A stretch of 9,973 bases of DNA, taken from IMG/VR virus record IMGVR_UViG_2645727991_000023, positions 1-9,973 of that record, one strand, 5' to 3'. Both the position numbers and the translations under genes were made by a program. The stretch is from a virus. Taxonomy: Duplodnaviria > Heunggongvirae > Uroviricota > Caudoviricetes. The notes under the pieces are model-generated. The model searched no databases, was not told the DNA's origin, and saw only the letters and a list, made by a program, of their open reading frames with translations. Positions 1 through 9,973 of this stretch are shown here, one piece after another. Within the stretch, counting starts at the first letter, position 1. Every line of letters starts with the position of its first letter.

Positions 1-771
1 TCACTTTTCCGATACAACACGGCGGGAAGAATCAGTAATCTGTCGAACAATATCCCGGTGCTTGTTCAGCTCCCGCAGCGCGGCGCAGACTCGCTCCCAC
101 TTCTGAACATCACTTTTCGCCCTGCGCAGCGCCAGGTTTGCCCTGCGAAGGGACGGAAAAATCAGCTCATCTGCTTGCGTTTCGGTAAACGATGGCAACG
201 GCTGCACAATGTCCGCCACAGTTTCTGTTTTAATTTCTTCCTGTGTTGCGGCTTCCCGGACTGGTAACGCAGCACCTGCTGGCTGAGGAAAGGCCTTACC
301 ATCATTTTCCGTTACCGGCGCGGCTTTCGGATCTGCTGGTAAATTACCCACCGGCATGCAGTAACGAAATTTACCGTTCTGATTTACGCGTGCCAGGCGC
401 CCCGTTGCTGTTACGACCGCCAACGTGGAAGCAACCTTGCGAATGCTAACACCGAACTTATCCGCCAGTTCCTCACACGTTTTAGCCCCATCCTGACCGA
501 TAAACTCAATCATCATGTCTGCGGTAACTTTTTGTTCGACCTCCCCGGTCAGCATATCCTGTGCTTCAGATTTTACTGGCCGCTCTTCGGTTACCCGGGA
601 TTCACCTTCGCCAGCCAGAAACCAGGTGTGACCAGTTTTATCAACGACGCCATTTCTTTTGAGTTCCCACAGCTCGTTGACAGCCTCTTCACGACTGATT
701 CCAAGGCGAGCTGCCACCACATGTGAAGAGGCTTTTTTCAGTGCTTTCAGTGCGTCAGATACGGTTTCCAT
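1..771 (-). CDS. Prophage protein of unknown function, DUF1627-like, with two winged-helix-like segments
   Basis: The 256-aa ORF has GGAGGAAA about 8 nt upstream of its ATG at 771. Two segments resemble wHTH modules (AARLGISREEAVNELWELKRNGVV and CEELADKFGVSIRKVASTLAVV). It sits directly downstream of the DnaC-like gene, as in many lambdoid prophages. Confidence 0.6.
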   Translation of the reverse strand: METVSDALKALKKASSHVVAARLGISREEAVNELWELKRNGVVDKTGHTWFLAGEGESRVTEERPVKSEAQDMLTGEVEQKVTADMMIEFIGQDGAKTCEELADKFGVSIRKVASTLAVVTATGRLARVNQNGKFRYCMPVGNLPADPKAAPVTENDGKAFPQPAGAALPVREAATQEEIKTETVADIVQPLPSFTETQADELIFPSLRRANLALRRAKSDVQKWERVCAALRELNKHRDIVRQITDSSRRVVSEK

Positions 772-792
772 TAAAATTTCCTCCGGACAAAA

Positions 793-1539
793 TTACTTCA
801 CAACCCTCATATTGCTGACATTTGGACGCCAGCTATCCCAGTTAAACGTCACCCATCGACCACCGTTCATGGTCATGCGGTCCATAATCCTCTCACCAAG
901 AAGTGTACTCATTGCGGCATGATTCAGGTTTGTTAACATCCCGACACTGCACAGTGATGCTGTCCGGCGATCAATTATCTGGTGCAATACCACCTGCTCG
1001 TTTTTCGTCTCCCGCTGAACGCCTATTTCATCCAGGACCAGCAAATCAACACCGCAAAGCTCCTGTAAAAATTTTTCCCCGGATTTGCCGTTGTCGTAGC
1101 TGTCATGCAACACGCTCATGACATCAGACACGGTGACGATAATCACGCTGCGCCCCTTCACCATCAGCCGGTTACCCATCGCCGCTGCAAGGTGATTTTT
1201 CCCGGTGCCGGTTTTACCGCTGAACACAAAATTCGTGCACCCGGTCATCAGTTCGTCAGCTATGGATTTGGCCTGGCTCAGCGCGTATTTTTGCCCGTCG
1301 TTCTGCACCTGATAATTTGCAAACGAGCATTTGCTGTGCAGAGGCTGGATGCCCGAACGATTCAGGATTTTTTCCACCCGCAACTGGCGATTCTGGCGGT
1401 TAATCTCCTCGCTGCGTTTTCGTCCTTCAGCAAGTTGCCATTCCCGCCACTCCTCCACCGTCCGGTACGGTGGAACCGCCCCCTGTGGTGCAAGTCTGCG
1501 AATACGTTCAAGAACCCCAACTGCCGCAATGTTTTTCAT
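793..1539 (-). CDS. DnaC/IstB-like AAA+ replicative helicase loader (lambda P analog)
   Basis: The 248-aa ORF has Walker A GKTGTGKN and Walker B LLVLDEIG. Its ATG at 1539 lies 6 nt after the stop of the upstream O-like gene, which suggests translational coupling. Confidence 0.9.
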   Translation of the reverse strand: MKNIAAVGVLERIRRLAPQGAVPPYRTVEEWREWQLAEGRKRSEEINRQNRQLRVEKILNRSGIQPLHSKCSFANYQVQNDGQKYALSQAKSIADELMTGCTNFVFSGKTGTGKNHLAAAMGNRLMVKGRSVIIVTVSDVMSVLHDSYDNGKSGEKFLQELCGVDLLVLDEIGVQRETKNEQVVLHQIIDRRTASLCSVGMLTNLNHAAMSTLLGERIMDRMTMNGGRWVTFNWDSWRPNVSNMRVVK

Positions 1540-1545
1540 GACACG

Positions 1546-2628
1546 TCACCCCCTGAATCCCGGCGGTATTTCAGTGTCCGGTTCAGAAATGTGATTCACG
1601 CAACGCTGGTTGTTCGTGCCGCTTACCGGGAGCAACCAGGGGTTTTCAAAATTCCGGTCCGGCCCAAAAAACGTCGTCGCTCGCTGAACAAATTCCGTTC
1701 CCGCTTTCCCGGTCGCCGCCAGGTATCTCGCGTAACGCCTCACACCATCCAGCATGGTCTCTGGTGGCACCCCCTCGCGCAATCTGGCCTTCCAGGCACT
1801 GAATGCGGATTTCTTCGGGTTTGCTCCGGCACGCAACGGGTACTCCCGCCAGACCTGTTCGAACACATCCGGATAATCCACTCGTCCCACAGACTGCCCG
1901 GTGTTTTCCGGGACTACCCGATCGGCTTCCCGCTGAATGGCGGAATCGGCTTCAGGCTGCTGCAGTTGGTGTGATTGCTCCGGCCTTGCGGTCATCACCT
2001 GCTGCACAGCGCCCGAATCGGCTTTCAGCGCATACGCTGAATCGGCTTCCGGTGTCGTGCCTGCTGGCTGACCAAGATTGACGGTCTGAACATCCCCTGC
2101 CTGGTTCGTGGCGTTTTTTACGCCATGGACCATAGTGTTTTGATCTTCTTGATCTGTATCTTTATCTGTATCTTTATCTGTATCTTTATCTGTCGTGACT
2201 CGTCGTGACATGTGCGTGACATTTCGTGACGCGCCGTGACAATCGCCATTTTGTTCCCACTTTCTTTCCCTCTCTCGCTGCGCCCTCTTGCGCTCTGCAG
2301 GAGATTTTGCGGTTTGCGAAATATTGCCGTTGTCCTCTTTAAGCACCTGGCGTTTTTCCCATCCAGTGATTAAATCACCATCAAGTACCCGCCCCTGCAT
2401 CGTCTGCAAAATTGAATCAATTACCTCTTCTGTCACGTCGAGCGCACTTGCCAAATCTTCTGTCGTGACATCAATGTGACCTCGCGTGACATTTCGTGAC
2501 GCGCTCACCAGGAGGTGGATATACACTGCCATCACTGTTGCAATTGGCTGCCCTGACACCCTGGCAATTGTTCGCCACTTAGGGTCATTTGGCATGTCAT
2601 GCCATAATCTGAGCCAGGCGTTAGCCAT
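1546..2628 (-). CDS. Replication initiator, lambda O / YdaU-like
   Basis: The long ORF sits immediately upstream of the helicase loader. Its N-terminus (WLRLWHDMPNDPKW...) is typical of prophage replication proteins. The gene contains iteron-like repeats and an AT-rich tandem repeat, as lambda O does. I prefer the ATG at 2628, which has AGAGG 5 nt upstream, over the GTG at 2634 used in the ORF track. Confidence 0.75.
   Translation of the reverse strand: MANAWLRLWHDMPNDPKWRTIARVSGQPIATVMAVYIHLLVSASRNVTRGHIDVTTEDLASALDVTEEVIDSILQTMQGRVLDGDLITGWEKRQVLKEDNGNISQTAKSPAERKRAQRERERKWEQNGDCHGASRNVTHMSRRVTTDKDTDKDTDKDTDQEDQNTMVHGVKNATNQAGDVQTVNLGQPAGTTPEADSAYALKADSGAVQQVMTARPEQSHQLQQPEADSAIQREADRVVPENTGQSVGRVDYPDVFEQVWREYPLRAGANPKKSAFSAWKARLREGVPPETMLDGVRRYARYLAATGKAGTEFVQRATTFFGPDRNFENPWLLPVSGTNNQRCVNHISEPDTEIPPGFRG
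2152..2193. repeat. Tandem 12-bp repeat ATCTGTATCTTT, 3.5 copies, in frame (encodes DKDT repeats on the minus strand)
   Basis: Exact copies lie at 2152-2163, 2164-2175 and 2176-2187, with a half copy at 2188-2193. The repeat is AT-rich and directly abuts the first CGTGAC cluster. Confidence 0.9.
2194..2240. repeat. Iteron-like cluster 1: five CGTGAC hexamers phased at 10-11 bp (putative origin element)
   Basis: CGTGAC starts at 2194, 2204, 2215, 2225 and 2235. The cluster contains the 21-bp block GCGTGACATTTCGTGACGCGC at 2214-2234. Confidence 0.5.
2464..2504. repeat. Iteron-like cluster 2: CGTGAC/TGTGAC hexamers phased at 10-11 bp (putative origin element)
   Basis: Hexamers start at 2464, 2475 (TGTGAC), 2485 and 2495. 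The same exact 21-bp block occurs at 2484-2504, exactly 270 bp from the copy in cluster 1. An inverted GTCACG lies at 2432-2437. Confidence 0.5.
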
Positions 2629-2699
2629 ACTCACCTCTTCTGATACCGAATCTTTTTACTCACGAGTTGCCGGAAGCGATTCGATATGGCTATTATCAC

Positions 2700-3125
2700 T
2701 CAATGCACTGCCACAGCATTTCCTGCCGGGCCACCACGGTTCATCTGATTGAAACCGGCGATTGCCACCGCGACAAAATCATCAGCGTCTCTCACCAGTC
2801 GCTCCCGCGTCTCCACCAGCTCCCGAAAATAAGCTGAACTGTGGCTGCGCATTCTGGCCACCAGCAAAGGTGGCATTGCCTTTTCGATCGCTGGTAACAA
2901 CGCCAGAATTTTTTCAACTGCATCAGGGGTGTCTTTCTCTACCCAGCGGAAAATTTTCTGGGTATTGCGAGCCAGGGCTTCCGGATGGCTGTCGTCATGC
3001 AGTTCTGGGAACGTCATACCCAGTTCAAAATAAGCCCTGGTTATTTCAGCTGCCGGAACTTTTTCACCGTCCGGATGCGCCCAGGCATTCATCGCCATGC
3101 GGATGTGTTCATGCTTGATTTTCAT
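2700..3125 (-). CDS. YdaT-family protein (functional CII analog of Rac/CP-933P-type prophages)
   Basis: The 141-aa ORF starts MKIKHEHI, like the Rac YdaT I recall, and has a similar length. It lies directly downstream of the Cro-like gene and overlaps it by 17 nt. Confidence 0.75.
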   Translation of the reverse strand: MKIKHEHIRMAMNAWAHPDGEKVPAAEITRAYFELGMTFPELHDDSHPEALARNTQKIFRWVEKDTPDAVEKILALLPAIEKAMPPLLVARMRSHSSAYFRELVETRERLVRDADDFVAVAIAGFNQMNRGGPAGNAVAVH

Positions 3126-3390
3126 GAATCAAGCTCCTAGAAAGTGGTTGTGTTAACGTTTTGGTATCTTCCAGCTCGGGCCAAATATTCATCCAATCAA
3201 AAGGCCTTAGTTGCTGACGTGTAACTTCACCATTACTGGCTCGCTCAATAAGGACACATAACGATGCCCCTAACACTTGACCTTTACTCAATGCCTTTCT
3301 TAGATAACCGATGCTGGTACCACACTCGCATGCAAACATACGCTGTTCATCTGACGAAAGAGAATTGAGAAATATTCTTAATTCTTCCAT
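3109..3390 (-). CDS. Cro-like HTH regulator, YdaS/DicC family
   Basis: The 93-aa ORF has AAGGAG (3401-3396) 5 nt upstream of its ATG. The HTH-like core is CGTSIGYLRKALSKGQ followed by IERASNGEVTRQQLRP, which is typical of YdaS-type proteins. It is divergent from the repressor gene. Confidence 0.8.
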   Translation of the reverse strand: MEELRIFLNSLSSDEQRMFACECGTSIGYLRKALSKGQVLGASLCVLIERASNGEVTRQQLRPFDWMNIWPELEDTKTLTQPLSRSLIHENQA

Positions 3391-3415
3391 AGCTACTCCT
3401 TAGTAAACACAGCAA

Positions 3416-3443
3416 AGAATACCTACAGGTAAACAAAAGTCAA
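3416..3443 (-). promoter_or_regulatory. PR-like promoter for the Cro-like operon
   Basis: On the minus strand, -35 TTGACT (3443-3438) is followed by a 16-nt spacer and -10 TATTCT (3421-3416). The operator at 3420-3431 overlaps the -10 and the spacer. Confidence 0.5.
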
Positions 3444-3497
3444 TACCCACAGGTTGTTTACCTTGCAGTAATCGCATCTATTATTTACCTATGGACA
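3420..3497. promoter_or_regulatory. OR-like operator cluster of 12-bp pseudo-palindromes, TACCY-N2-RGGTA type
   Basis: The sites are TACCTACAGGTA (3420-3431), TACCCACAGGTT (3444-3455), the weaker TACCTTGCAGTA (3459-3470) and the weaker TACCTATGGACA (3486-3497), which overlaps the repressor ATG. The first two share AATACCYACAGGT and are 24 bp apart. Confidence 0.55.
3454..3484 (+). promoter_or_regulatory. PRM-like promoter for the repressor gene, possibly giving a leaderless mRNA
   Basis: The -10 TATTAT (3479-3484) ends 6 nt before the ATG at 3491. Only weak -35 candidates exist (TTGTTT/GTTTAC, 3454-3461). There is no Shine-Dalgarno sequence before the ATG. Confidence 0.35.
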
Positions 3498-3910
3498 AAT
3501 ATGAATTTAGACGACAGCAACTCATCAAAATTCGTGATGAGAAATGCGATGGTAAAGCGGTTAACGTGGCCAGAAAGATCGGGCGCGAGCCTTCTTATGT
3601 ATCAAGAATGTTGTACCCAGAGGGGAAAAAGGGAAAAAAACGGATCGCTGATGATATGGTGGAGATTATCGAAGAGTCCTTTGGGTTACCCCGGGGATGG
3701 ATGGATGGTATCGTTTCATCATCAACGAACACAGCCTCCAGTTATGAAACAAGGGTTCTAACGCCACGACAACGTATTTTTTTAGATCTCTTAGACGAAC
3801 TGCCAGAAAGTGAAGCGGATAACTTATTAAAAACTCTTGAAGAGAAAAAACAGTATTACAATATGATCTACGAAGAAATCCGTAAAAAGAAAGCACAAAA
3901 CGCATCATAG
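3491..3910 (+). CDS. Prophage repressor, DicA-type (N-terminal HTH, C-terminal helical domain, no S24 peptidase domain)
   Basis: The 139-aa ORF is divergent from the Cro-like gene. The HTH-like segment is VNVARKIGREPSYVSRML. The C-terminal segment LTPRQRIFLDLLDELPESEADNLLKTLEE resembles the DicA C-terminus (...LELFNALPESEQ...) as I recall it. No Ala-Gly/Ser-Lys autocleavage module is present. Confidence 0.85.
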   Translation: MDKYEFRRQQLIKIRDEKCDGKAVNVARKIGREPSYVSRMLYPEGKKGKKRIADDMVEIIEESFGLPRGWMDGIVSSSTNTASSYETRVLTPRQRIFLDLLDELPESEADNLLKTLEEKKQYYNMIYEEIRKKKAQNAS

Positions 3911-3950
3911 CTCACCAAACAACTAGTCACCAGTTAAGACACCGCAAAAA

Positions 3951-3993
3951 GTTACCCATGGGTATTTACTTTTTAAATACCTATGGGTATCCT
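3951..3993 (+). promoter_or_regulatory. Candidate early-left (dicB-operon) promoter
   Basis: -35 TTTACT (3965-3970) is followed by a 17-nt spacer and -10 TATCCT (3988-3993), bracketed and overlapped by the two operators. An alternative reading is GTTACC (3951-3956) with TAAATA (3974-3979). This is a motif-level call only. Confidence 0.4.
3953..3989. promoter_or_regulatory. OL-like operator pair
   Basis: A perfect palindrome TACCCATGGGTA (3953-3964) and a near-perfect TACCTATGGGTA (3978-3989) lie 25 bp apart. They have the same half-sites as the OR cluster. Confidence 0.55.
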
Positions 3994-4314
3994 TCTTTTC
4001 ATACCAACTCACCCCGCTCCACAGAATGCAGGGCAATACTTCGAGTTACCAGGCAGTGGTCAGGGGTTAAGTAGCCAGCCCGAGGCGTAAGAACATGACG
4101 GCAGGGTTCAACTTTAATAACTATGCAGCAGGTTTTTGTTCCGCTACCCCAGCGTTAAGGGGAAACAGAGGATTTCTCAGTGGGCGAAGTCAAACATCAG
4201 AATGGAAGGCATCCAGGGATCAGCAAAGAAACAGCGATGGCGCTTTATATTGATATCAGCGCCATTGCCGGACAGGTAAGAATTATCAGAGCGGTAACTA
4301 AGCGGTATGCGCCT

Positions 4315-4515
4315 TTACTTCAGAAAGTCTCTGGTGAGTGCACCGAAGATATTGTCAACGATTTCGTCATCAAACTGCGAGGACTCATCTTCAGTTACAA
4401 GGTGACCACAATTTTTGCAGATGGCTCCCGCGAAACTGTCAGAGCCATGCGGTTTAAAGGATGTGTCAAAGACTTCGCCGCCACATTCTGGGCAAGAAAA
4501 CTTGATTGTATTCAT
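4315..4515 (-). CDS. Small acidic zinc-ribbon protein (66 aa), function unknown, antisense to the early-left operon
   Basis: The protein begins MNTIKFSCPECGG and continues through CKNCG, giving two CxxC pairs 21 residues apart. GAGAGG (4530-4525) lies 9 nt upstream of the ATG at 4515. Its codon usage is better than that of the in-register plus-strand ORF. The track's TTG start at 4521 is unlikely. Confidence 0.55.
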   Translation of the reverse strand: MNTIKFSCPECGGEVFDTSFKPHGSDSFAGAICKNCGHLVTEDESSQFDDEIVDNIFGALTRDFLK

Positions 4516-4607
4516 AACCAATTTCCTCTCGAGTAACAGACCCCTCAGAGGATACCACCTCGCCTGACGTGGTTAAAAGCAGGCAACGCTAACCACAAGG
4601 AGCCGAC

Positions 4608-4826
4608 ATGCAGAAACGAGAACCCGTCATCATCGCGCCAGACTATACCGATGATGAACTTTATGAGTGGATGCACCAGAAAATTAAGGCAGCGCAGGAC
4701 CTGAAATGGGCCAATGAAGCCAGGGCTAAGCAAGCTGAAAATCTGTCCGCTCTGGAGCAGGATATCACCAATCTGGAAAAAGCAGCGGCATTAAGCATTG
4801 CCAGAATGATTACATACCCGCGTTAA
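4608..4826 (+). CDS. ydfC: YdfC-like small protein of the dicB operon
   Basis: The 72-aa ORF has AAGGAG (4597-4602) 5 nt upstream of its ATG. Its length and position, the last CDS before the dicF spacer, match ydfC in K-12 Qin. I recognise it mainly by synteny. Confidence 0.7.
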   Translation: MQKREPVIIAPDYTDDELYEWMHQKIKAAQDLKWANEARAKQAENLSALEQDITNLEKAAALSIARMITYPR

Positions 4827-5166
4827 TAGCTAACCAACGAAGCTAAGGTTGGTAATTAAGGAGTTCTCCACGGGTGAGGTGGAGTGCGTGCGCCGGACAC
4901 GGGTGAGCATCCGGCACTGACAGTTTACTGAAAGGATATTTCCCTGAAAAGTCAGGGCATAACGCGAAAGCGCACGGCGAGGTAGCTGGTTCATAGATAG
5001 CCTGTCGTTAAATTTTCGTCGACCGTGCGCTTCCGGTTGTGGCACTCCGCGAAATGGCGCGGCGGTAAGTATGGCGGGGTTATTCCTTCCCCGTTGAGGA
5101 CACCGGGTTGTCAGGTTGACCATACGCTTAAGTGACAACCCCGCTGCAACGCCCTCTGTTATCAAT
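4827..5166 (+). other. Hairpin-dense untranslated spacer (upstream part of the dicF precursor)
   Basis: No plus-strand ORF here has both a start codon and an RBS. The stems are 4833-4838/4848-4853, 4866-4871/4879-4884, 4892-4897/4910-4915, 4942-4947/4952-4957, 4970-4980/5019-5030, 5047-5051/5058-5062, 5075-5079/5089-5093 and a 9-bp stem at 5105-5113/5133-5141. Confidence 0.5.
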
Positions 5167-5219
5167 TTTCTGGTGACGTTTGGCGGTATCAGTTTTACTC
5201 CGTGGCTGCTCTGCCGCCC
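5167..5219 (+). ncRNA. dicF: DicF small RNA (Hfq-dependent sRNA that inhibits ftsZ translation)
   Basis: The sequence TTTCTGGTGACGTTTGGCGGTATCAGTTTTACTCCGTGGCTGCTCTGCCGCCC matches the 53-nt K-12 DicF sequence as I recall it, apart from about one base. It is followed by T5. It sits between ydfC-like and dicB homologs, 174 nt upstream of dicB, as in Qin. Confidence 0.85.
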
Positions 5220-5224
5220 TTTTT
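5182..5224 (+). terminator. Intrinsic terminator forming the DicF 3' end
   Basis: GGCGG (5182-5186) pairs with CCGCC (5214-5218), with inner CAG/CTG pairs (5190-5192/5207-5209). An alternative local hairpin is GGCTGC-tct-GCCGCC. A TTTTT run follows at 5220-5224. Confidence 0.65.
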
Positions 5225-5226
5225 AA

Positions 5227-5378
5227 AGTGAATTTTGTGATGTGGTGAATGCGGCTGAGCGCACGCGGAACAGTTAAAACCAAAAACAGTGTTATGGGTG
5301 GATTCTCTGTATCCGGCGTTAATTGTTAACTGGTTAACGTCACCTGGAGGCACCAGGCACTGCATCACAAAATTCATT
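5227..5378 (+). promoter_or_regulatory. Long-range 21-bp RNA helix enclosing 110 nt between the dicF terminator and the dicB RBS (candidate RNase III site or translational control element)
   Basis: Positions 5227-5247 pair with 5358-5378. The core is the 12-bp perfect pairing AATTTTGTGATG/CATCACAAAATT, extended on both sides, with 3 G-U pairs in total. The 3' arm ends 3 nt before the dicB SD GAGGA (5382-5386). Confidence 0.5.
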
Positions 5379-5393
5379 GTTGAGGACGCGATA

Positions 5394-5582
5394 ATGGAAA
5401 AGTTATCACGTAATGCCAGCACGTCTGAACTTCGTTTCGAAATTGGCGTTATCACTGGAGACAAAACATTTATTGAAGACGCCATTAAGCAGAGAAAACT
5501 CGAGCAGGACCTGTTAAATGAAGTATGCATTCCTTCAATGCTGGCTCGTCTGGACCTGCTGCAAAAAGGATATAAACAATGA
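5394..5582 (+). CDS. dicB: DicB cell-division inhibitor (MinC activator)
   Basis: The 62-aa ORF starts at the ATG at 5394, with GAGGA 7 nt upstream. The segments FEIGV...EDAI..RK.E..LLN..CI.SMLARL align with K-12 DicB (62 aa) as I recall it. The longer 97-aa track ORF has no RBS. Confidence 0.9.
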   Translation: MEKLSRNASTSELRFEIGVITGDKTFIEDAIKQRKLEQDLLNEVCIPSMLARLDLLQKGYKQ

Positions 5583-5770
5583 ATACAACATTTGCACTCG
5601 TTCTGACAGTTTATCTTGTTTCCGGCGAATCTCTTGAGCTGGTGACTGGCTTATACGGTTCAATGAAAGAATGCATGGCTGCAGCAGCAGAACAAAAAAT
5701 TCCCGGTAACTGTTATCCGGTAGATAAAACTACTCACACTAATAATAACGAAATACCGGCAGGACTTTAA
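5579..5770 (+). CDS. ydfD: YdfD-like small membrane/lysis protein
   Basis: The 63-aa ORF overlaps dicB through ATGA. It has an N-terminal hydrophobic helix (FALVLTVYLVSG) and the conserved tail EQKIPGNCYPVDK...EIPAGL, as in K-12 YdfD. Confidence 0.85.
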   Translation: MNTTFALVLTVYLVSGESLELVTGLYGSMKECMAAAAEQKIPGNCYPVDKTTHTNNNEIPAGL

Positions 5771-5863
5771 AACAGCACCGTAATTAATATCCGGTTTCAA
5801 TTAAAAATGCCAGCAATGGCAGGGATTCGTTCACCCTGAAATCTGTAATGAGGTTAAAACAAA

Positions 5864-7738
5864 ATGAGTAAAGTCTTTATTTGCGCCGCCATTCCGGACG
5901 AACAGGCAATAAAGGAAGAAGGTGCAGTCGCTGTAGCTACTGCCATTGAAGCCGGTGATGAACGTCGCGCCCGCGCAAAATTTCACTGGCAATTCCTGGA
6001 ACATTATCCGGCTGCTCAGGACTGCGCTTATAAATTTCTTGTCTGCGAGGATAAACCCGGTATACCCCGCCCTGCCCTCGATTCCTGGGATGCTGAATAT
6101 ATGCAGGAAAACCGCTGGGATGAGGCGTCTGCTTCCTTTGTCCCGGTTGAGACTGAATCAGATCCGATGAACGTCACTTTTGACAAGCTGGCCCCTGAAG
6201 TACAGAACGCTGTCATGGTTAAGTTCGACACATGTGAAAACATCACCGTTGATATGGCGATTGACGCGCAGGAATTACTGCAAGAAGACGTGGCTACCTT
6301 TGACGGGCACATCGTTGAAGCACTGATGAAAACGCCTGAAATTAACGCTATGTATCCGGAACGCAAACTGTTCGCTATCGGATGGGTTAAACACAAATGT
6401 AAGCCGGGTACCAAATGGCCCGAAATTCAGGCTGAATTACGTAACTGGAAAAAACGGCAGGACGCAGAGCGCAAAGAGACTGGAAAATACACGTCTGTTG
6501 TTGATCTTGCCCGCGCCAAAGCCAACCGACAGCACACTGAAAACCCAGCAGAAAAAATCCCTCCTGTAACTGCCGCCATTCATCGCGAATACAAGCAGAC
6601 ATGGAAAACCCTGGGCAGGGAGCTGGCCTACTATCTCTGGCCTGGTGATGCGGATGCCGGAAACATTGACGGCAGCATCCTTCGCTGGGCTAAAAATGAA
6701 GTTATCGCCAGAGATCGCGAAGACTGGAAGCGCATCTCCGCATCAATGCGCAAACAACCTGATGCGCTTCGCTACAGCCGCCAGACTATTTTTGGCCTTG
6801 TCCGTGAACGCCCGATCGACATTCACAAAGATCCCGTGGCACTGAACAAATACATCACTGAATACCTGACTACAAAGGGCGTGTTTGAAGATGACGAAGG
6901 AACAAATCAGGGCACAGCTAATACTCTCTCGTCGCCAGTACCAGAAACTGACGCAGTGGAAACGGCAATTCAGGACAACGAAAAAACCGAATGCAAAGTG
7001 GAAGTCGAATCATCTGTAGAGCGTGAGGGGCCGTTCTACTTCCTCTTCAGCGACAAGGATGGCGAAAAATACGGTCGTGCAAACAAACTTTCTGGTCTGA
7101 ATAAGGCGCTGGCTGCAGGGGCTACTGAAATCACGAAAGAAGAATATTTTGCCCGCAAAAACGGTACATACTCAGGTTCACAACAAAATACTGGTGCATC
7201 TGACACGATCGCACAACCGGAGCCGGTAAAAGTTACCGCTGACGAAGTAAACAAAATTATGCAGGCAGCCAATATCAGCCAGCCTGACGCCGATAAGTTG
7301 CTTGCTGTATCACGTGGTGAATTTGTTGCAGGGATTAGCGACCCGAATGATCCGAAATGGGTGAAGGAGATTGAAACCCGCGATTCAGTGAATCAGAACC
7401 AGCAAGAAACGGAACAGAACGACCAGAAAGCGGAACAAAACAGCCCAAATGCGTTACAAAACGAGCCAGAAACGAAACAATCCGAACCAGTAGTGCAACA
7501 GGAACCGGAAAAAGTCTGCACCGCCTGCGGTCAGAGCGGTGGCGGCAACTGCCCCGATTGTGGCGCTGTCTGGGCAACGCAACATACCAGGAAACATTCG
7601 ATGAAGAGAATCAGGTTGAAGCTCAGGAGAATGATCCGGAGGAAATGGAAGGCGCTGAACATCCACACAAGGAGAACACTGGCGGCAATCAGCATCACGC
7701 CAGCGATAGTGAAACTGGCGAGGCGGCAGATCCCTTAA
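5864..7738 (+). CDS. ORF as written: YdfE-like N-terminal region with a Q/E-rich linker and a CxxC-N9-CxxC zinc ribbon. The last ~55 codons are probably out of frame.
   Basis: GAGG (5850-5853) lies upstream of the ATG at 5864. The N-terminus MSKVFICAAIPDE...FHWQFLEHYPAAQDCAYKF resembles K-12 YdfE and the N-termini of prophage proteins annotated as exodeoxyribonuclease VIII, as I recall them. The zinc ribbon CTACG...CPDCG lies at 7517-7561. Confidence 0.6.
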   Translation: MSKVFICAAIPDEQAIKEEGAVAVATAIEAGDERRARAKFHWQFLEHYPAAQDCAYKFLVCEDKPGIPRPALDSWDAEYMQENRWDEASASFVPVETESDPMNVTFDKLAPEVQNAVMVKFDTCENITVDMAIDAQELLQEDVATFDGHIVEALMKTPEINAMYPERKLFAIGWVKHKCKPGTKWPEIQAELRNWKKRQDAERKETGKYTSVVDLARAKANRQHTENPAEKIPPVTAAIHREYKQTWKTLGRELAYYLWPGDADAGNIDGSILRWAKNEVIARDREDWKRISASMRKQPDALRYSRQTIFGLVRERPIDIHKDPVALNKYITEYLTTKGVFEDDEGTNQGTANTLSSPVPETDAVETAIQDNEKTECKVEVESSVEREGPFYFLFSDKDGEKYGRANKLSGLNKALAAGATEITKEEYFARKNGTYSGSQQNTGASDTIAQPEPVKVTADEVNKIMQAANISQPDADKLLAVSRGEFVAGISDPNDPKWVKEIETRDSVNQNQQETEQNDQKAEQNSPNALQNEPETKQSEPVVQQEPEKVCTACGQSGGGNCPDCGAVWATQHTRKHSMKRIRLKLRRMIRRKWKALNIHTRRTLAAISITPAIVKLARRQIP

Positions 7739-8337
7739 TTAAGGTGAATGGTCATCACAATCTCACATCCACCAGCAGAGCGGGGATTCATCTGATGATC
7801 GACATTGAAACCATGGGAAAAAATCCCAATGCCGCGATTATCTCAATAGGCGCAATATTTTTCGATCCACAAACCGGAGATATGGGACCGGAATTTAGCA
7901 AGACCATCGATCTGGATACTGCTGGCGGAGTTATTGATCGTGACGTCATTAAATGGTGGCTGAAGCAATCACGTGAAGCGCAGTCTGCCATTCTGACCGA
8001 TGAAATCCCGTTAGATGATGCACTACTGCAATTGCGGGAATTTATCGCCGAAAACTCCGGTGAATTTTTTGTTCAGGTCTGGGGAAATGGAGCCAACTTC
8101 GACAACGTGATTTTACGCCGTTCATACGAACGGCAGGGGATCCCCTGCCCCTGGCACTACCACAACGATCGCGATGTACGCACAATCGTTGAGCTAGGGA
8201 AAGCCATAGACTTCGATGCCAGAACAGCTATCCCATTCGAAGGTGAGCGCCACAATGCACTTGATGACGCCCGTTACCAGGCAAAATACGTTTCAGCTAT
8301 CTGGCAAAAACTGATCCCGAGTCAGGCTGATTTTTAA
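7558..8337 (+). CDS. ORF as written: DEDDh (DnaQ-like) 3'-5' exonuclease domain protein. The track's TTG start at 7558 is doubtful, and a possible independent start is the ATG at 7795.
   Basis: The Exo I motif is MIDIETMG, Exo II is WGNGANFD and Exo III is HNALDDARY. The ATG at 7795 has GGGGA 8 nt upstream and lies 57 nt after the upstream ORF's stop. That start would give a 180-aa stand-alone exonuclease. Confidence 0.6.
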   Translation: MWRCLGNATYQETFDEENQVEAQENDPEEMEGAEHPHKENTGGNQHHASDSETGEAADPLIKVNGHHNLTSTSRAGIHLMIDIETMGKNPNAAIISIGAIFFDPQTGDMGPEFSKTIDLDTAGGVIDRDVIKWWLKQSREAQSAILTDEIPLDDALLQLREFIAENSGEFFVQVWGNGANFDNVILRRSYERQGIPCPWHYHNDRDVRTIVELGKAIDFDARTAIPFEGERHNALDDARYQAKYVSAIWQKLIPSQADF

Positions 8338-8406
8338 TGTTCAACCATCGCCGGTTGTGACTGGTATTCTGCAACCGGCCCTCATCTGATGTAAGAGATA
8401 AAAGCG

Positions 8407-8658
8407 ATGAGCGAAGTAATCATGATTGTCTCTCCCGGTAAATGGGTATCTGAAGAACAGCTAATTGCACTGAAAGGAATAAAAAAGGGAACGCTAAAAA
8501 AAGCCAGAGAAAAATCGTTTATGGAAGGAAGGGAATATAAGCATGTCGCCCATGACTGTATGCCATGGGATAACAGCCCATGCTTTTACAACCTGGAAGA
8601 AATAGATCGCTGGATTGAACGCCAGGCATCAGCAAGACCAAGGCGTCATCTTACTTGA
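8407..8658 (+). CDS. Excisionase-like protein (DUF1233-type Xis)
   Basis: The 83-aa ORF lies immediately upstream of int on the same strand. The segments PGKWVSEEQLIALKGIKKGTLKKAREKSFMEGREYKHV and EEIDRWIE resemble the putative excisionases of this integrase family. An alternative start is the ATG at 8422. Confidence 0.7.
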   Translation: MSEVIMIVSPGKWVSEEQLIALKGIKKGTLKKAREKSFMEGREYKHVAHDCMPWDNSPCFYNLEEIDRWIERQASARPRRHLT

Positions 8659-8677
8659 GTAAAAACAATACTAACCA

Positions 8678-9973
8678 ATGAGAGAAGCTGAAATGAAATA
8701 TCCGACAGGCGTGGAAAACCATGGTGGGAAATTACGTATCTGGTTTGTTTATAAAGGTGTAAGAGTCCGGGAAAATCTTGGGGTTCCTGACACAGCAAAA
8801 AACAGGCGCATTGCAGGTGAGCTACGCGCCTCTGTTTGTTACGCAATAAAAACTGGCGCTTTCGACTATGCAAAACAGTTTCCCGCCTCACACAATCTGG
8901 AAAAATTTGGTGAGGCCCGACAAGATTTAACCATAAAAGAACTGGCTGAAAAATTTCTGGCACTGAAAGAAACTGAAGTCGCAAAAACGTCACTCAACAC
9001 GTACCGTGCCGTCATCAAAAATATTCTGAGCATAATCGGTGAAAAAAATCTTGCATCATCGATTAATAAAGAAAAATTGCTGGCGGTACGTAAAGAGTTA
9101 CTGACTGGATACCAGATCCCCAAAAGTAACTATATTGTTACACAACCAGGGAGATCGGCTGTTACCGTAAATAATTACATGACAAATCTTTACGCCGTGT
9201 TCCAGTTTGGTGTTGATAACGGTTATCTGGCAGACAATCCATTTAAGGGGATCTCACCATTAAAGGAGTCGAGAACCATCCCGGATCCACTTTCGCGGGA
9301 GGAGTTTATCCGCCTTATTGACGCGTGCAGAAATCAGCAAGCCAAAAATTTATGGTGTGTTTCCGTTTATACTGGGATTCGCCCTGGTGAACTCTGTGCG
9401 CTTGGATGGGAAGATATAGTTCTGAAAAATGGAACAATGATAATCAGAAGAAATCTGGCAAAAGACCGTTTTACAGTACCAAAAACACAGGCGGGAACCA
9501 ATCGTGTGATTCACCTTATTAAGCCCGCAATCGACGCTCTCCGGAGTCAGATGGCACTAACGAGACTGAGTAAAGAGCATATCATCGATGTTCACCTCAG
9601 AGAATTCGGCAGAACAGAGAAACAAAAATGTACCTTTGTTTTTCAACCTGAAGTGTCAGCGAAAGTAAAAAATTATGGTGACCATTTTACCGTTGACTCA
9701 ATAAGGCAGATGTGGGACGCAGCGGTAAAGCGTGCCGGAATCCGCCATCGCAAATCGTATCAGTCGAGACACACTTATGCCTGCTGGTCGTTAACAGCAG
9801 GAGCTAACCCGGCATTCATTGCAAACCAGATGGGCCATGCAGATGCGCAAATGGTGTTTCAGGTGTACGGGAAATGGATGTCAGACAATAATAATGCGCA
9901 GGTAACGCTGTTAAATACACAGTTAAGCGAGTTTGCCCCAACCATGCCCCATAACGAAGCGATGAAAAGTTAA
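8678..9973 (+). CDS. Tyrosine recombinase, phage integrase (Rac/Qin IntR/IntQ-like, with an N-terminal arm-binding domain)
   Basis: The N-terminus reads KYPTGVENHGGKLRIWFVYKGVRVRE (DUF3596-type arm domain). The catalytic motifs are YTGIRPGE, SRHTYA and MGHAD, with a tyrosine in VYGKW. The probable true start is the ATG at 8693 (MKYPTG, 426 aa). The stop codon is at the window edge. Confidence 0.95.
   Translation: MREAEMKYPTGVENHGGKLRIWFVYKGVRVRENLGVPDTAKNRRIAGELRASVCYAIKTGAFDYAKQFPASHNLEKFGEARQDLTIKELAEKFLALKETEVAKTSLNTYRAVIKNILSIIGEKNLASSINKEKLLAVRKELLTGYQIPKSNYIVTQPGRSAVTVNNYMTNLYAVFQFGVDNGYLADNPFKGISPLKESRTIPDPLSREEFIRLIDACRNQQAKNLWCVSVYTGIRPGELCALGWEDIVLKNGTMIIRRNLAKDRFTVPKTQAGTNRVIHLIKPAIDALRSQMALTRLSKEHIIDVHLREFGRTEKQKCTFVFQPEVSAKVKNYGDHFTVDSIRQMWDAAVKRAGIRHRKSYQSRHTYACWSLTAGANPAFIANQMGHADAQMVFQVYGKWMSDNNNAQVTLLNTQLSEFAPTMPHNEAMKS

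Follow-up and report, generated by a model that had tools for sequence, protein, structure and literature searches.

DicF was among the first bacterial regulatory RNAs to be discovered, and the operon to which it belongs is toxic and tightly controlled. Faubladier, Cam and Bouche are said to have reported in 1990 that RNase III and RNase E process the DicF precursor. In Escherichia coli K-12, RNase III cleavage of the polycistronic transcript from dicBp generates a 190-nt DicF species, and RNase E cleavage generates the 53-nt DicF (Ragunathan et al. 2023, PMC10448788), while an RNase III cut 3' of DicF yields a 72-nt form (PMC5069750, PMC9438474). Both the 190-nt and the 53-nt species and their dependence on the two enzymes were established experimentally by others in K-12, and the leader ahead of DicF, which is called a 'long untranslated region' or 'ydfC 3' UTR' (3' untranslated region), was described by cuts and sizes only (PMC5069750, PMC9438474). 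Here we analyzed this leader, the 340-nt spacer between ydfC and dicF (4827-5166), in a window of 9,973 nt, by which we mean the whole stretch at positions 1 to 9,973 of the IMG/VR virus record IMGVR_UViG_2645727991_000023.

Judged by its annotated gene order, the window is a Qin-like lambdoid prophage, and the order ydfC-dicF-dicB-ydfD is the same as in K-12. Its 1-kb core is 93% identical to that of E. coli K-12 MG1655, where the distance from ydfC to dicF is also 340 nt, and the spacer alone is 97% identical. The DicF RNA and its terminator lie between ydfC and dicB, an RNase III helix (H1) precedes the DicF 5' end by about 137 nt, and the published RNase III and RNase E sites of the K-12 Qin dicBF precursor, which is the same locus, map onto H1 and onto 5167/5168. 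What sets the present locus apart from the published accounts of dicBF is a four-way junction between these two mapped processing sites, its covariation, the competition between H1 and the closing stem of the junction, and the presence of the junction before other small RNAs (sRNAs) and in phage P1. The covarying, pseudoknotted junction appears to be new, whereas the RNase III and RNase E processing was already known. As far as we could find the junction RNA is undescribed, although an older account of the upstream homology may still exist (Faubladier & Bouche 1994; the P1 genome paper).

A second system with which the leader can be compared is the 3'-UTR sRNA MicL, for which stem-loops direct precise RNase E processing (Updegrove 2019, as cited in PMC9438474). 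As far as that citation describes them, MicL-type sRNAs share with the DicF leader a structure upstream of an RNase E site and a cut that frees a terminator-ended, Hfq-binding sRNA from a longer mRNA. Unlike what is cited for MicL, the structure ahead of DicF is a multi-arm fold of 115 nt that has a pseudoknot as well as invariant loops, follows an RNase III helix and is portable among unrelated sRNAs and phages.

The four-way junction ahead of DicF

To define the conserved part of the spacer we gathered more than 250 loci (numbered with the prefix L) with a DicF-core pattern in viral and genome contigs, a P3-loop pattern, and BLAST searches against phages, E. coli genomes and plasmids; the strict DicF pattern in genome contigs yielded only 8 loci. 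Breakpoints and variants were counted over 155 distinct upstream contexts, and downstream features over 137 distinct downstream contexts. Covariation was assessed in an alignment of 22 representatives that are less than 94% identical (A1) and in a covariance model-based alignment of 100 loci with 54 distinct sequences (A2). An earlier note on this DNA, made from the sequence letters, had described the spacer as a hairpin-dense untranslated RNA and proposed alignment, covariation and Rfam searches. Every sequence element that it listed was found again at its place, and its reading of these elements is supported in part.

Minimum free energy (MFE) folding of the isolated 5031-5167 RNA returned exactly the covariation-supported junction, at -46.5 kcal/mol. 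The fold resembles a cloverleaf in its topology, the linkers at the junction being very short, and consists of a closing stem (P0) and three arms (P1, P2 and P3; Table 1). In A1, pairing is seen in 96% of the cells, and two-sided changes occur in 11 pairs, compared to 4.3 +/- 1.4 in shuffled alignments (0/500) and 1-5 in slid controls. In A2, 13 of 25 pairs are changed on both sides, compared to 6.8 +/- 1.3 in shuffled alignments and 0-4 in slid controls. The perfect 9-bp stem at 5105-5141, which the earlier note had picked out on its own, proves to be the P3 arm, and 6 of its 9 pairs covary. The variable part of P2 is a hairpin of at least 4 bp in all 59 distinct versions (59/59), even though these represent about 12 unrelated stem sequences with mostly CU-rich loops. 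Since G-U pairs occur in P0, the strand of the junction is the plus strand. Conserved and covarying stems outside DicF are found in the junction and in H1 (see below). Only DicF reached its Rfam 15 gathering score across the window, and at E <= 10 nothing credible was found in the spacer when 4500-5420 was scanned.

A pseudoknot between GUAUGG and CCAUAC probably locks the junction. Among the distinct sequences this combination occurs in 95, the compensatory GCAUGG/CCAUGC of the P1-phage family in 5, and a G-U intermediate in 4; all positions pair in 22/22 representatives. Only one of these positions covaries, so that the support for the pseudoknot is moderate.

The thermodynamic signal is unevenly distributed over the spacer. 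While 4827-5225 as a whole has a fold z-score of -2.79 (0/100 shuffles equally stable) and 4958-5043 a z-score of -3.15, the plus strand of 4827-4957 reaches -1.63 and that of 5031-5167 no more than -0.58. Thermodynamics alone would therefore miss the conserved part, which is picked out by the comparative evidence.

The junction is also widespread. Covariance model R1 gave 148 bits for the window, 91 bits for P1 and 102 bits for an Actinobacillus phage, and BLAST found 5036-5158 without DicF in phage cdtI, Stx2c phages, the Actinobacillus phage and P1. In P1 the junction lies about 36 nt behind the C1-controlled Pban, at a place where the genome record says 'dicF-like region'. We found the junction in 4315 of 5426 complete E. 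coli genomes, at 8970 places and with up to 8 copies per genome, never annotated, and in 510 plasmid records, many of which are sized 85-105 kb like P1-like phage-plasmids. It is single-copy per locus (100 hits in 100 loci) and always on the early-left or Pban side. All dicF-carrying loci retrieved retain roughly 4947/4958-5166 at an identity of at least 87%, and everything 5' of that is swapped in a mosaic fashion, with homology breakpoints between prophages at 4847, 4869, 4887, 4939, 4947 and 4958. In Salmonella enterica (L124), DicF is preceded by a GGATACCACC...ACAACACGAAAGCA junction and a different hairpin, with no four-way junction (best covariance model hit 9.6 bits, elsewhere in the locus), which means that DicF can exist without it. 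In the Actinobacillus phage vB_Apl-pPE4 (L133, 2590-2770), a single junction is followed by two tandem copies of the sRNA cassette, in which the terminator and a portion of the P0 3' strand are included.

Table 1. Positions of the elements of the DicF leader and of neighbouring features in the window.
Feature	Position	Strand	Basis or remark
Four-way-junction RNA, 115 nt	5036-5150	+	covariation, MFE
P0 closing stem	5036-5043 / 5143-5150	+	junction consensus
P1 arm	5047-5051 / 5058-5062	+	loop AAAUGG
P2 base GGU/ACC	5064-5066 / 5102-5104	+	junction consensus
P2 variable hairpin	5075-5079 / 5089-5093	+	CU-rich loop
P3, 9 bp perfect, GGGTTGTCA/TGACAACCC	5105-5113 / 5133-5141	+	conserved 19-nt loop
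Candidate pseudoknot GUAUGG/CCAUAC	5069-5074 / 5120-5125 (P3 loop)	+	loop-loop, 6 bp
Single-stranded spacer ...GUUAUCAAU↓UUUCUGG	5151-5167	+	ends at RNase E cut 5167/5168; unpaired in covariation-supported fold
Long helix H1, ~20 bp	4958-4980 (CAUAACGCGAAAGCGCACGGCGA) / 5019-5043 (UCGACCGUGCGCUUCCGGUUGUGGC)	+	apex 4981-5018 variable
Helix H2, ~27 bp, -30.7 kcal/mol	5221-5248 / 5357-5386	+	3' of DicF; compensatory changes in L196-type loci
ydfC 3' UTR, mosaic 5' third of spacer	4827-4941	+	hairpins 4829-4853, hp1, hp2, Shine-Dalgarno-like motif, 10-mer repeat
Hairpin hp1, CTCCAC/GTGGAG	4866-4884	+	sequence
Hairpin hp2, GCCGGA/TCCGGC	4892-4915	+	sequence
10-mer CACGGGTGAG, direct repeat	4869 and 4898 only	+	sequence
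Shine-Dalgarno-like TAAGGAG	4857-4863	+	sequence
boxB-like hairpin CCCTGA-AAAG-TCAGGG	4942-4957	+	directly 5' of H1
DicF	5168-5219 (Rfam RF00039 match); 5168-5220 with intrinsic terminator	+	75 bits, E = 1.6e-15; 5' end placed by Rfam alignment
dicB	5394-5582		DicB = Pfam PF05358, E = 2e-37
ydfC	4608-4826		stop at 4826
DicA-like repressor	3491-3910		window annotation
ydfA-like open reading frame, then reversed zinc-ribbon gene	after DicA-like repressor		annotation
Replication genes, YdaT, cro-like regulator		-	annotation of window
DUF1482 (ydfD-like) gene, exonuclease, xis, int, rspB	3' of dicB		window annotation

Helix H1 and the proposed processing of sRNA precursors

The 11-bp stem that the earlier note had seen upstream of the junction is present, with GCGCACGGCGA at 4970-4980 facing TCGACCGTGCGC at 5019-5030 and one bulged base. 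It is not the whole stem, being only the core of the longer helix H1, in which CAUAAC.GC.GAAAGCGCACGGCGA (4958-4980) pairs with UCGACCGUGCGCUUCCGGUUGUGG (5019-5043) to form a duplex of -30.8 kcal/mol. Equivalent helices of other sequence, with energies of -27 to -38 kcal/mol, were found in L141, L145, L184, L196, L215 and L254. Strand pairs such as GAUGAGAGCA/UGCUCUCUUC, GCGCAUUCC/GGAAUGCGC and CACAG/CUGUG take the place of H1 in other phages, and the apex varies freely. In a trimmed alignment (A3), 14 cells of H1 are changed on both sides, compared to 4.7 +/- 1.7 in shuffles (0/500). Counted 190 nt back from the DicF 3' end, the RNase III cut would fall at about 5030/5031, give or take a few nt, on the 3' side of the 11-bp stem, and the H1 sequence matches Fig. 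S1B of PMC10448788. We infer that H1 is the published RNase III site, and its cleavage in the present strain is expected from the 97% identity to K-12.

The heptamer GCGCACG is present at 4970 and 5259, and its complement at 5024 as well as at 4887. The alternative pairing between 5024 and 5259 that the earlier note had envisaged does not covary, and it was rejected because L196 turns the stem into GGAAUGCGC and yet retains GCGCACGCG downstream. Within the apex of the H1-type helix of L145 and L182 we observed tRNA T-arm-like sequences (GGTTCGATTCC, GGTTCAATTCC). A tRNA is located near the L196 leader (L196 4506-4632), and tRNA-Asn and tRNA-Thr follow the module in P1, so that tRNA genes seem to associate with this leader.

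H1 and P0 share the strand GUUGUGG (5036-5043). The two stems are consequently mutually exclusive, and the junction can close fully only when H1 is absent or cut. This competition is retained in L205, where the strand has a different sequence.

Downstream of the junction, a terminator-like hairpin follows 37-84 nt after P0 in 131 of the 137 distinct contexts, and 4 of the remaining 6 are narrowly below the terminator threshold. DicF itself has a terminator-like site at 5202-5217 followed by a T run. The RNAs between P0 and the terminator belong to at least 8 unrelated sequence types, including DicF. At least 8 different short RNAs were seen in the place of DicF (L132 2615-2665, L131 2600-2650, L195, L224, L161, L174, L141 and L145); they end in intrinsic terminators of the GGCGG...CCGCC type or other types, and their hosts are cdtI and Stx2c phages, other prophages and P1. 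Scanned against Rfam at gathering scores, the non-DicF cassette RNAs matched no family among the types scanned, and we regard them as candidate unannotated phage sRNAs. The L174 RNA keeps the DicF 5' sequence UUUCUGGUGA with a different 3' hairpin.

These observations can be joined into a model that we hold with about as much belief as doubt, in which the spacer would be the 5' half of a modular, portable scaffold for the processing of phage sRNAs by RNase III and then RNase E. RNase III would cut H1 at about 5030/5031. This would allow P0 to close, placing a nuclease-resistant block behind the single-stranded 5'-monophosphate tail (5031-5035) of the 190-nt intermediate. RNase E would then cut at 5167/5168, in the first accessible A/U-rich strand (5151-5167), to release the 53-nt, terminator-ended, Hfq-binding DicF, and the same scaffold would be reused in other phages ahead of different short terminated RNAs. 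The processing scaffold that the earlier note had suggested is thus right in substance, with its sites on H1 and 5167/5168, although the role of RNase III and RNase E as such had already been published. We favor this model because the mapped cuts bracket the junction (the 5' end of the 190-nt species about 5 nt before P0, the RNase E site 17 nt after it), because P0-P3, P2 and H1 covary, and because the downstream terminator is nearly constant. The dicF loci moreover keep about 4947-5166 in single copy together with the competition between H1 and P0, and the MicL precedent, as far as it is described in the citing paper, counts in the same direction. It would appear that RNase E cleavage is guided or restricted by the junction, with H1 and P0 acting one after the other.

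Several points weigh against the scaffold model. The thermodynamic z-score of the junction on the plus strand is unremarkable. In P1 and the Actinobacillus phage the junction is not accompanied by H1, and in L184 and L205 no terminated RNA is near it. The effect of the junction on the efficiency or precision of cleavage is deduced from sequence, and the 2023 study does not report a loss of the 53-nt species without RNase III (PMC10448788), so that the RNase III step may not be obligatory. Finally, a simple processing spacer would need neither the invariant loops AAAUGG, GGCGGUAAGUAUGG and GGUUGACCAUACGC nor the pseudoknot. These suggest a specific partner, and for this reason we have kept the possibilities that the junction is an RNA with a function of its own or that it acts on termination.

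The MFE folds of the 190-nt and 281-nt precursors contained a pairing of the leader with DicF (GGCGGUAAG... with ...CUGCCGCC), which contradicts the covariation-supported fold. As the cassettes vary and the P1 terminator is unrelated, this pairing cannot be conserved.

DicF is followed by a further, conserved helix, H2, which belongs to the same processing unit as the leader. It contains the published 72-nt RNase III 3' end of DicF (about 5239) and sequesters the dicB Shine-Dalgarno sequence GAGGA (5382-5386). The region that H2 encloses gives a sub-threshold Rfam match to STnc100 (5231-5371; 34 bits compared to a cutoff of 47 bits, E = 1.5e-5). A preprint on the Pas sRNA (2026) was set aside, as it is about late-region sRNAs and STnc100 and not about the DicF leader.

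If the scaffold model is correct, it offers a testable account of how phages assemble interchangeable sRNA cassettes and explains why the dicF module constantly travels with about 220 nt of upstream sequence. The junction is a candidate RNA family that is missing from Rfam, with thousands of occurrences in E. coli genomes, and its distribution flags several likely new phage sRNAs.

Possible alternative roles of the junction

It is possible, if rather unlikely, that the junction is itself the functional RNA, a stable 137-nt by-product that binds a host or phage factor as a tRNA-shaped decoy, protein sponge or sensor, the sRNA merely sharing its transcription unit. Between them, the two mapped cuts would set free 5031-5167, a fragment of 137 nt that corresponds exactly to the junction, and this could be one of the further sRNAs at which the earlier note had hinted. 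No 137-nt species has been reported, the published probes being for dicF and ydfA only (PMC10448788). The invariant single-stranded loops and the covarying pseudoknot would suit such a function, as would the cloverleaf-like topology with its very short linkers. The junction also survives without H1 in P1, and without a downstream sRNA in the two contexts L184 and L205. Its abundance in complete E. coli genomes and its position in an operon with tRNA genes in P1 point the same way. Nonetheless, an autonomous RNA leaves the near-obligate linkage to a terminated sRNA unexplained, and neither ARAGORN nor the Rfam models for tRNA, tmRNA and Y-RNA recognize the junction. With tRNA-like signals the junction shares a cloverleaf-like form and an A/U-rich trailer in which RNase E cuts, a feature also of polycistronic tRNA precursors, but in its loops and the lengths of its arms it is unlike tRNA. 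An identity as tRNA or tmRNA was rejected, since ARAGORN found 0 such genes in the window and Rfam gave no tRNA or tmRNA hit at E <= 10. One tRNA-like family alone gave a hit, mascRNA, and at 14 bits and E = 9.4 this is noise.

A cis-acting effect of the junction on RNA polymerase, like put in function, or on the balance between stopping at the sRNA terminator and reading on into dicB/kil, exo, xis and int (in P1, into ban), appears improbable to us. The put RNAs of phage HK022 suppress termination in cis, in a manner that depends on the zinc-binding domain of the RNA polymerase beta-prime subunit. They are about 70 nt long, with two stems and a triplex (PMC9378689). The junction resembles them as a cis-encoded folded RNA that comes after an early promoter and before terminators, in phages in which no N protein is recognizable at that place. 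An early promoter always precedes it and the first intrinsic terminator comes after it; it lies 36-300 nt behind Pban in P1 or PL in phage cdtI and the Actinobacillus phage, and such a terminator follows in the 131 of 137 contexts noted above. The P1 terminator is strong (a 6-bp GC stem, a UUCG loop and six U), yet ban lies 2.4 kb downstream of it, and read-through transcripts were observed in K-12 (PMC10448788). No N-like protein was detectable in the left operon of the window; YdfA, YdfC and other small open reading frames (ORFs) match no N family in Pfam or PHROGs, a search that small arginine-rich proteins can escape.

Several findings speak against an action on termination. The HK022 immunity region, where putL and putR are located, yielded no counterpart in the search with covariance model R1. 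In HK022 24000-32000, which runs from erf to gene O and brackets PL and PR by lambdoid gene order, the best hit was a 12-nt fragment (6.7 bits, E = 2.9). The put-like element proposed in the earlier note thus finds no homology in sequence or structure. With four arms and 115 nt instead of two hairpins, the junction also differs in architecture, and it occurs as one copy per phage, with none on the PR side, whereas put occurs as two. The Qin-type element lies about 0.9-1 kb from dicBp, behind three ORFs. With a terminator as imperfect as that of DicF, leaky read-through can be had with no special factor. A chain of H1, P0, antiterminator and terminator, as in an attenuator, had been suggested by MFE folding of the 190-nt and 281-nt precursors, but its key pairing is neither above shuffles nor conserved across cassette types. 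When the 3' strand of P0 was paired with the 5' strand of the terminator, z-scores ran from -2.7 to +1.6, mostly about -1 to 0. The DicF-type pairing GCUG..CGCC/GGCG..CAGU has -10.9 kcal/mol and z = -1.2, while the P1 type lacks the pairing (z = +1.6) and the cdtI type has only a weak one (z = 0.0), so that attenuation-type pairing appears to do no better than shuffles.

In the most novel version of this idea, the junction would be a put-like or sensor-like switch, bound by RNA polymerase or another factor at the first early-left terminator, that chooses between the sRNA and read-through into kil/dicB and the recombination and integration genes, with a fold unrelated to put and with H1 gating its closing. 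To this version, too, we give little credence. If it were true that the junction influences termination, phage early transcription would have a second kind of control by RNA alone.

A lambda nut site was rejected, as the searches for boxA and boxB were negative and the hairpin is not conserved. The leader does resemble the lambda nutL/N leader as a PL-proximal untranslated leader with an RNase III-cleaved helix, and CCCUGAAAAG at 4942-4951 matches part of the lambda nutR boxB. However, boxA (CGCUCUUA or UGCUCUUUA, at most 1 mismatch) is absent from 3900-5400, its only hits in the window being at 2333 and 9571, and the lambda boxB GCCCTGAARAAGGGC has no match within 3 mismatches at 4942. The MFE structure of 4942-4957 is a 6-bp stem with an AAAG tetraloop, compared to the 5-bp stem and GNRA-like pentaloop of lambda boxB. 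The boxB-like hairpin of the earlier note is therefore a look-alike, the stem of which is broken in the K-12 type.

The mosaic 5' third and the minus strand

The features that the earlier note had stressed most, namely the twin GGGTGAG loops, the boxB look-alike and TAAGGAG, are located where it placed them, as is the 10-mer repeat, but are the least conserved parts of the spacer. Of the 155 distinct upstream contexts, 71 have hp2, 45 have hp1 and 27 have both copies of CACGGGTGAG, and the loops of the two hairpins vary (GGGTGAG, GGGTCAG, GGATAAG, GGGTGAA). Neither hp1 nor hp2 shows covariation on either strand in these contexts. In L097, L079 and L135, one 29-nt repeat unit was lost by recombination between the 10-mers, which destroyed both hairpins. 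Homology of 4827-4941 to other dicF-carrying prophages breaks at 4847, 4869, 4887 and 4939. These mosaic breaks and the loss of the hairpins in natural variants identify the 5' third as a recombination joint and show that its hairpins are not required for DicF. By sequence comparison, 4827-4946 is to be regarded as a recombination-prone, largely dispensable ydfC 3' UTR. The element GGATACCACCTCGCCTGACGTGGTTAAAAGCAGGCA (4550-4592), a conserved junction element located 5' of ydfC here, abuts the CAYAAC start of H1 directly in many other prophages (L008, L069, L071, L127 and L195), from which it follows that ydfC plus 4827-4946 behaves as an inserted module. Read on the minus strand, GGATACCACCTCGCCTGACGTGGTTAAAAGCAGGCA looks as if it could be an extended -10 promoter that serves the reversed zinc-ribbon gene, although the promoter scan made no such call.

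At the position of the 4942-4957 hairpin we found the versions CCCUGA/UCAGGG, the compensatory CUCUGA/UCAGAG, GCCUG...CAGGC and GGCUGG/CCAGCC, and unrelated hairpins fill it in other contexts. The stem has 6 bp here and only 4 bp in the commonest K-12-type variant (...CAGACC). The hairpin is a candidate for shielding the ydfABC fragment, whose new 3' end would lie close by once RNase III has cut. Such a protective role would fit the published loss of ydfA transcripts in the K-12 rnc mutant (PMC10448788).

The hairpins of the 5' third (4827-4957) might conceivably act on the minus strand, serving as 5' leader or control region for minus-strand genes that border this segment in other prophages, and be a leftover here; we consider this doubtful. 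The reverse complement of 4827-4957 has a fold z-score of -4.40 (0/200 shuffles), against the -1.63 of the plus strand, and hp2 lengthens to 11 bp through G-U pairs that are present on the minus strand only. The left neighbor in other prophages is often a minus-strand gene that starts at the breakpoint, and contexts breaking at 4847 and 4887 have a minus-strand start codon and Shine-Dalgarno sequence right at the junction of homology. Against this stand the lack of a sigma-70-like minus-strand promoter in 4827-5000 in our promoter scan, the natural variant UCCGGU (L095), which favors plus-strand pairing, and the missing covariation of the stems on either strand.

That the minus strand encodes a protein, either a 54-aa coding sequence (CDS) at 4830-4994 or a 111-aa TTG frame at 4830-5165, is hardly credible. 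PGAP, the NCBI annotation pipeline, calls the 54-aa CDS (WP_122994137.1, 4830-4994, minus strand) in strain 14EC001, which is 99.8% identical. This frame is open and stays intact in 42 of 45 full-length homologues. Nevertheless, neither frame belongs to a Pfam or PHROG family, the CDS is partly lost at mosaic breakpoints in 68 of 113 contexts, and substitutions at codon positions 1/2/3 number 9/80/83, which is not a coding pattern. Furthermore, breaks interrupt the 111-aa frame in 24 of 46 homologues, the CDS has no annotation in K-12, and it shares its place with RNA helices for which covariation is seen on the plus strand. WP_122994137.1 is thus probably a false gene called over a structured RNA.

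On the plus strand, the earlier note had found no start codon at a usable distance from TAAGGAG. GTG 4874 does lie 10 nt after this motif, but its frame of 10 codons, which ends in the second GGGTGAG, has a mutated start (GGGTCAG) in 9 of the 45 contexts that retain hp1. The plus-strand 36-aa and 10-aa frames were rejected as genes, since they match no family and have frame breaks, a non-coding substitution pattern or a lost start codon.

Further upstream, a gene of the ECs_2282 zinc-ribbon family at 4315-4521 on the minus strand lies antisense within the dicBp-driven operon, at a place where K-12 has the plus-strand ydfB. Between the DicA-like gene and ydfA, a palindrome with 16-bp arms (TACCCATGGGTATTTA...TAAATACCTATGGGTA, 3953-3989) is followed by a T-rich run and could be an operator or a terminator near dicBp.

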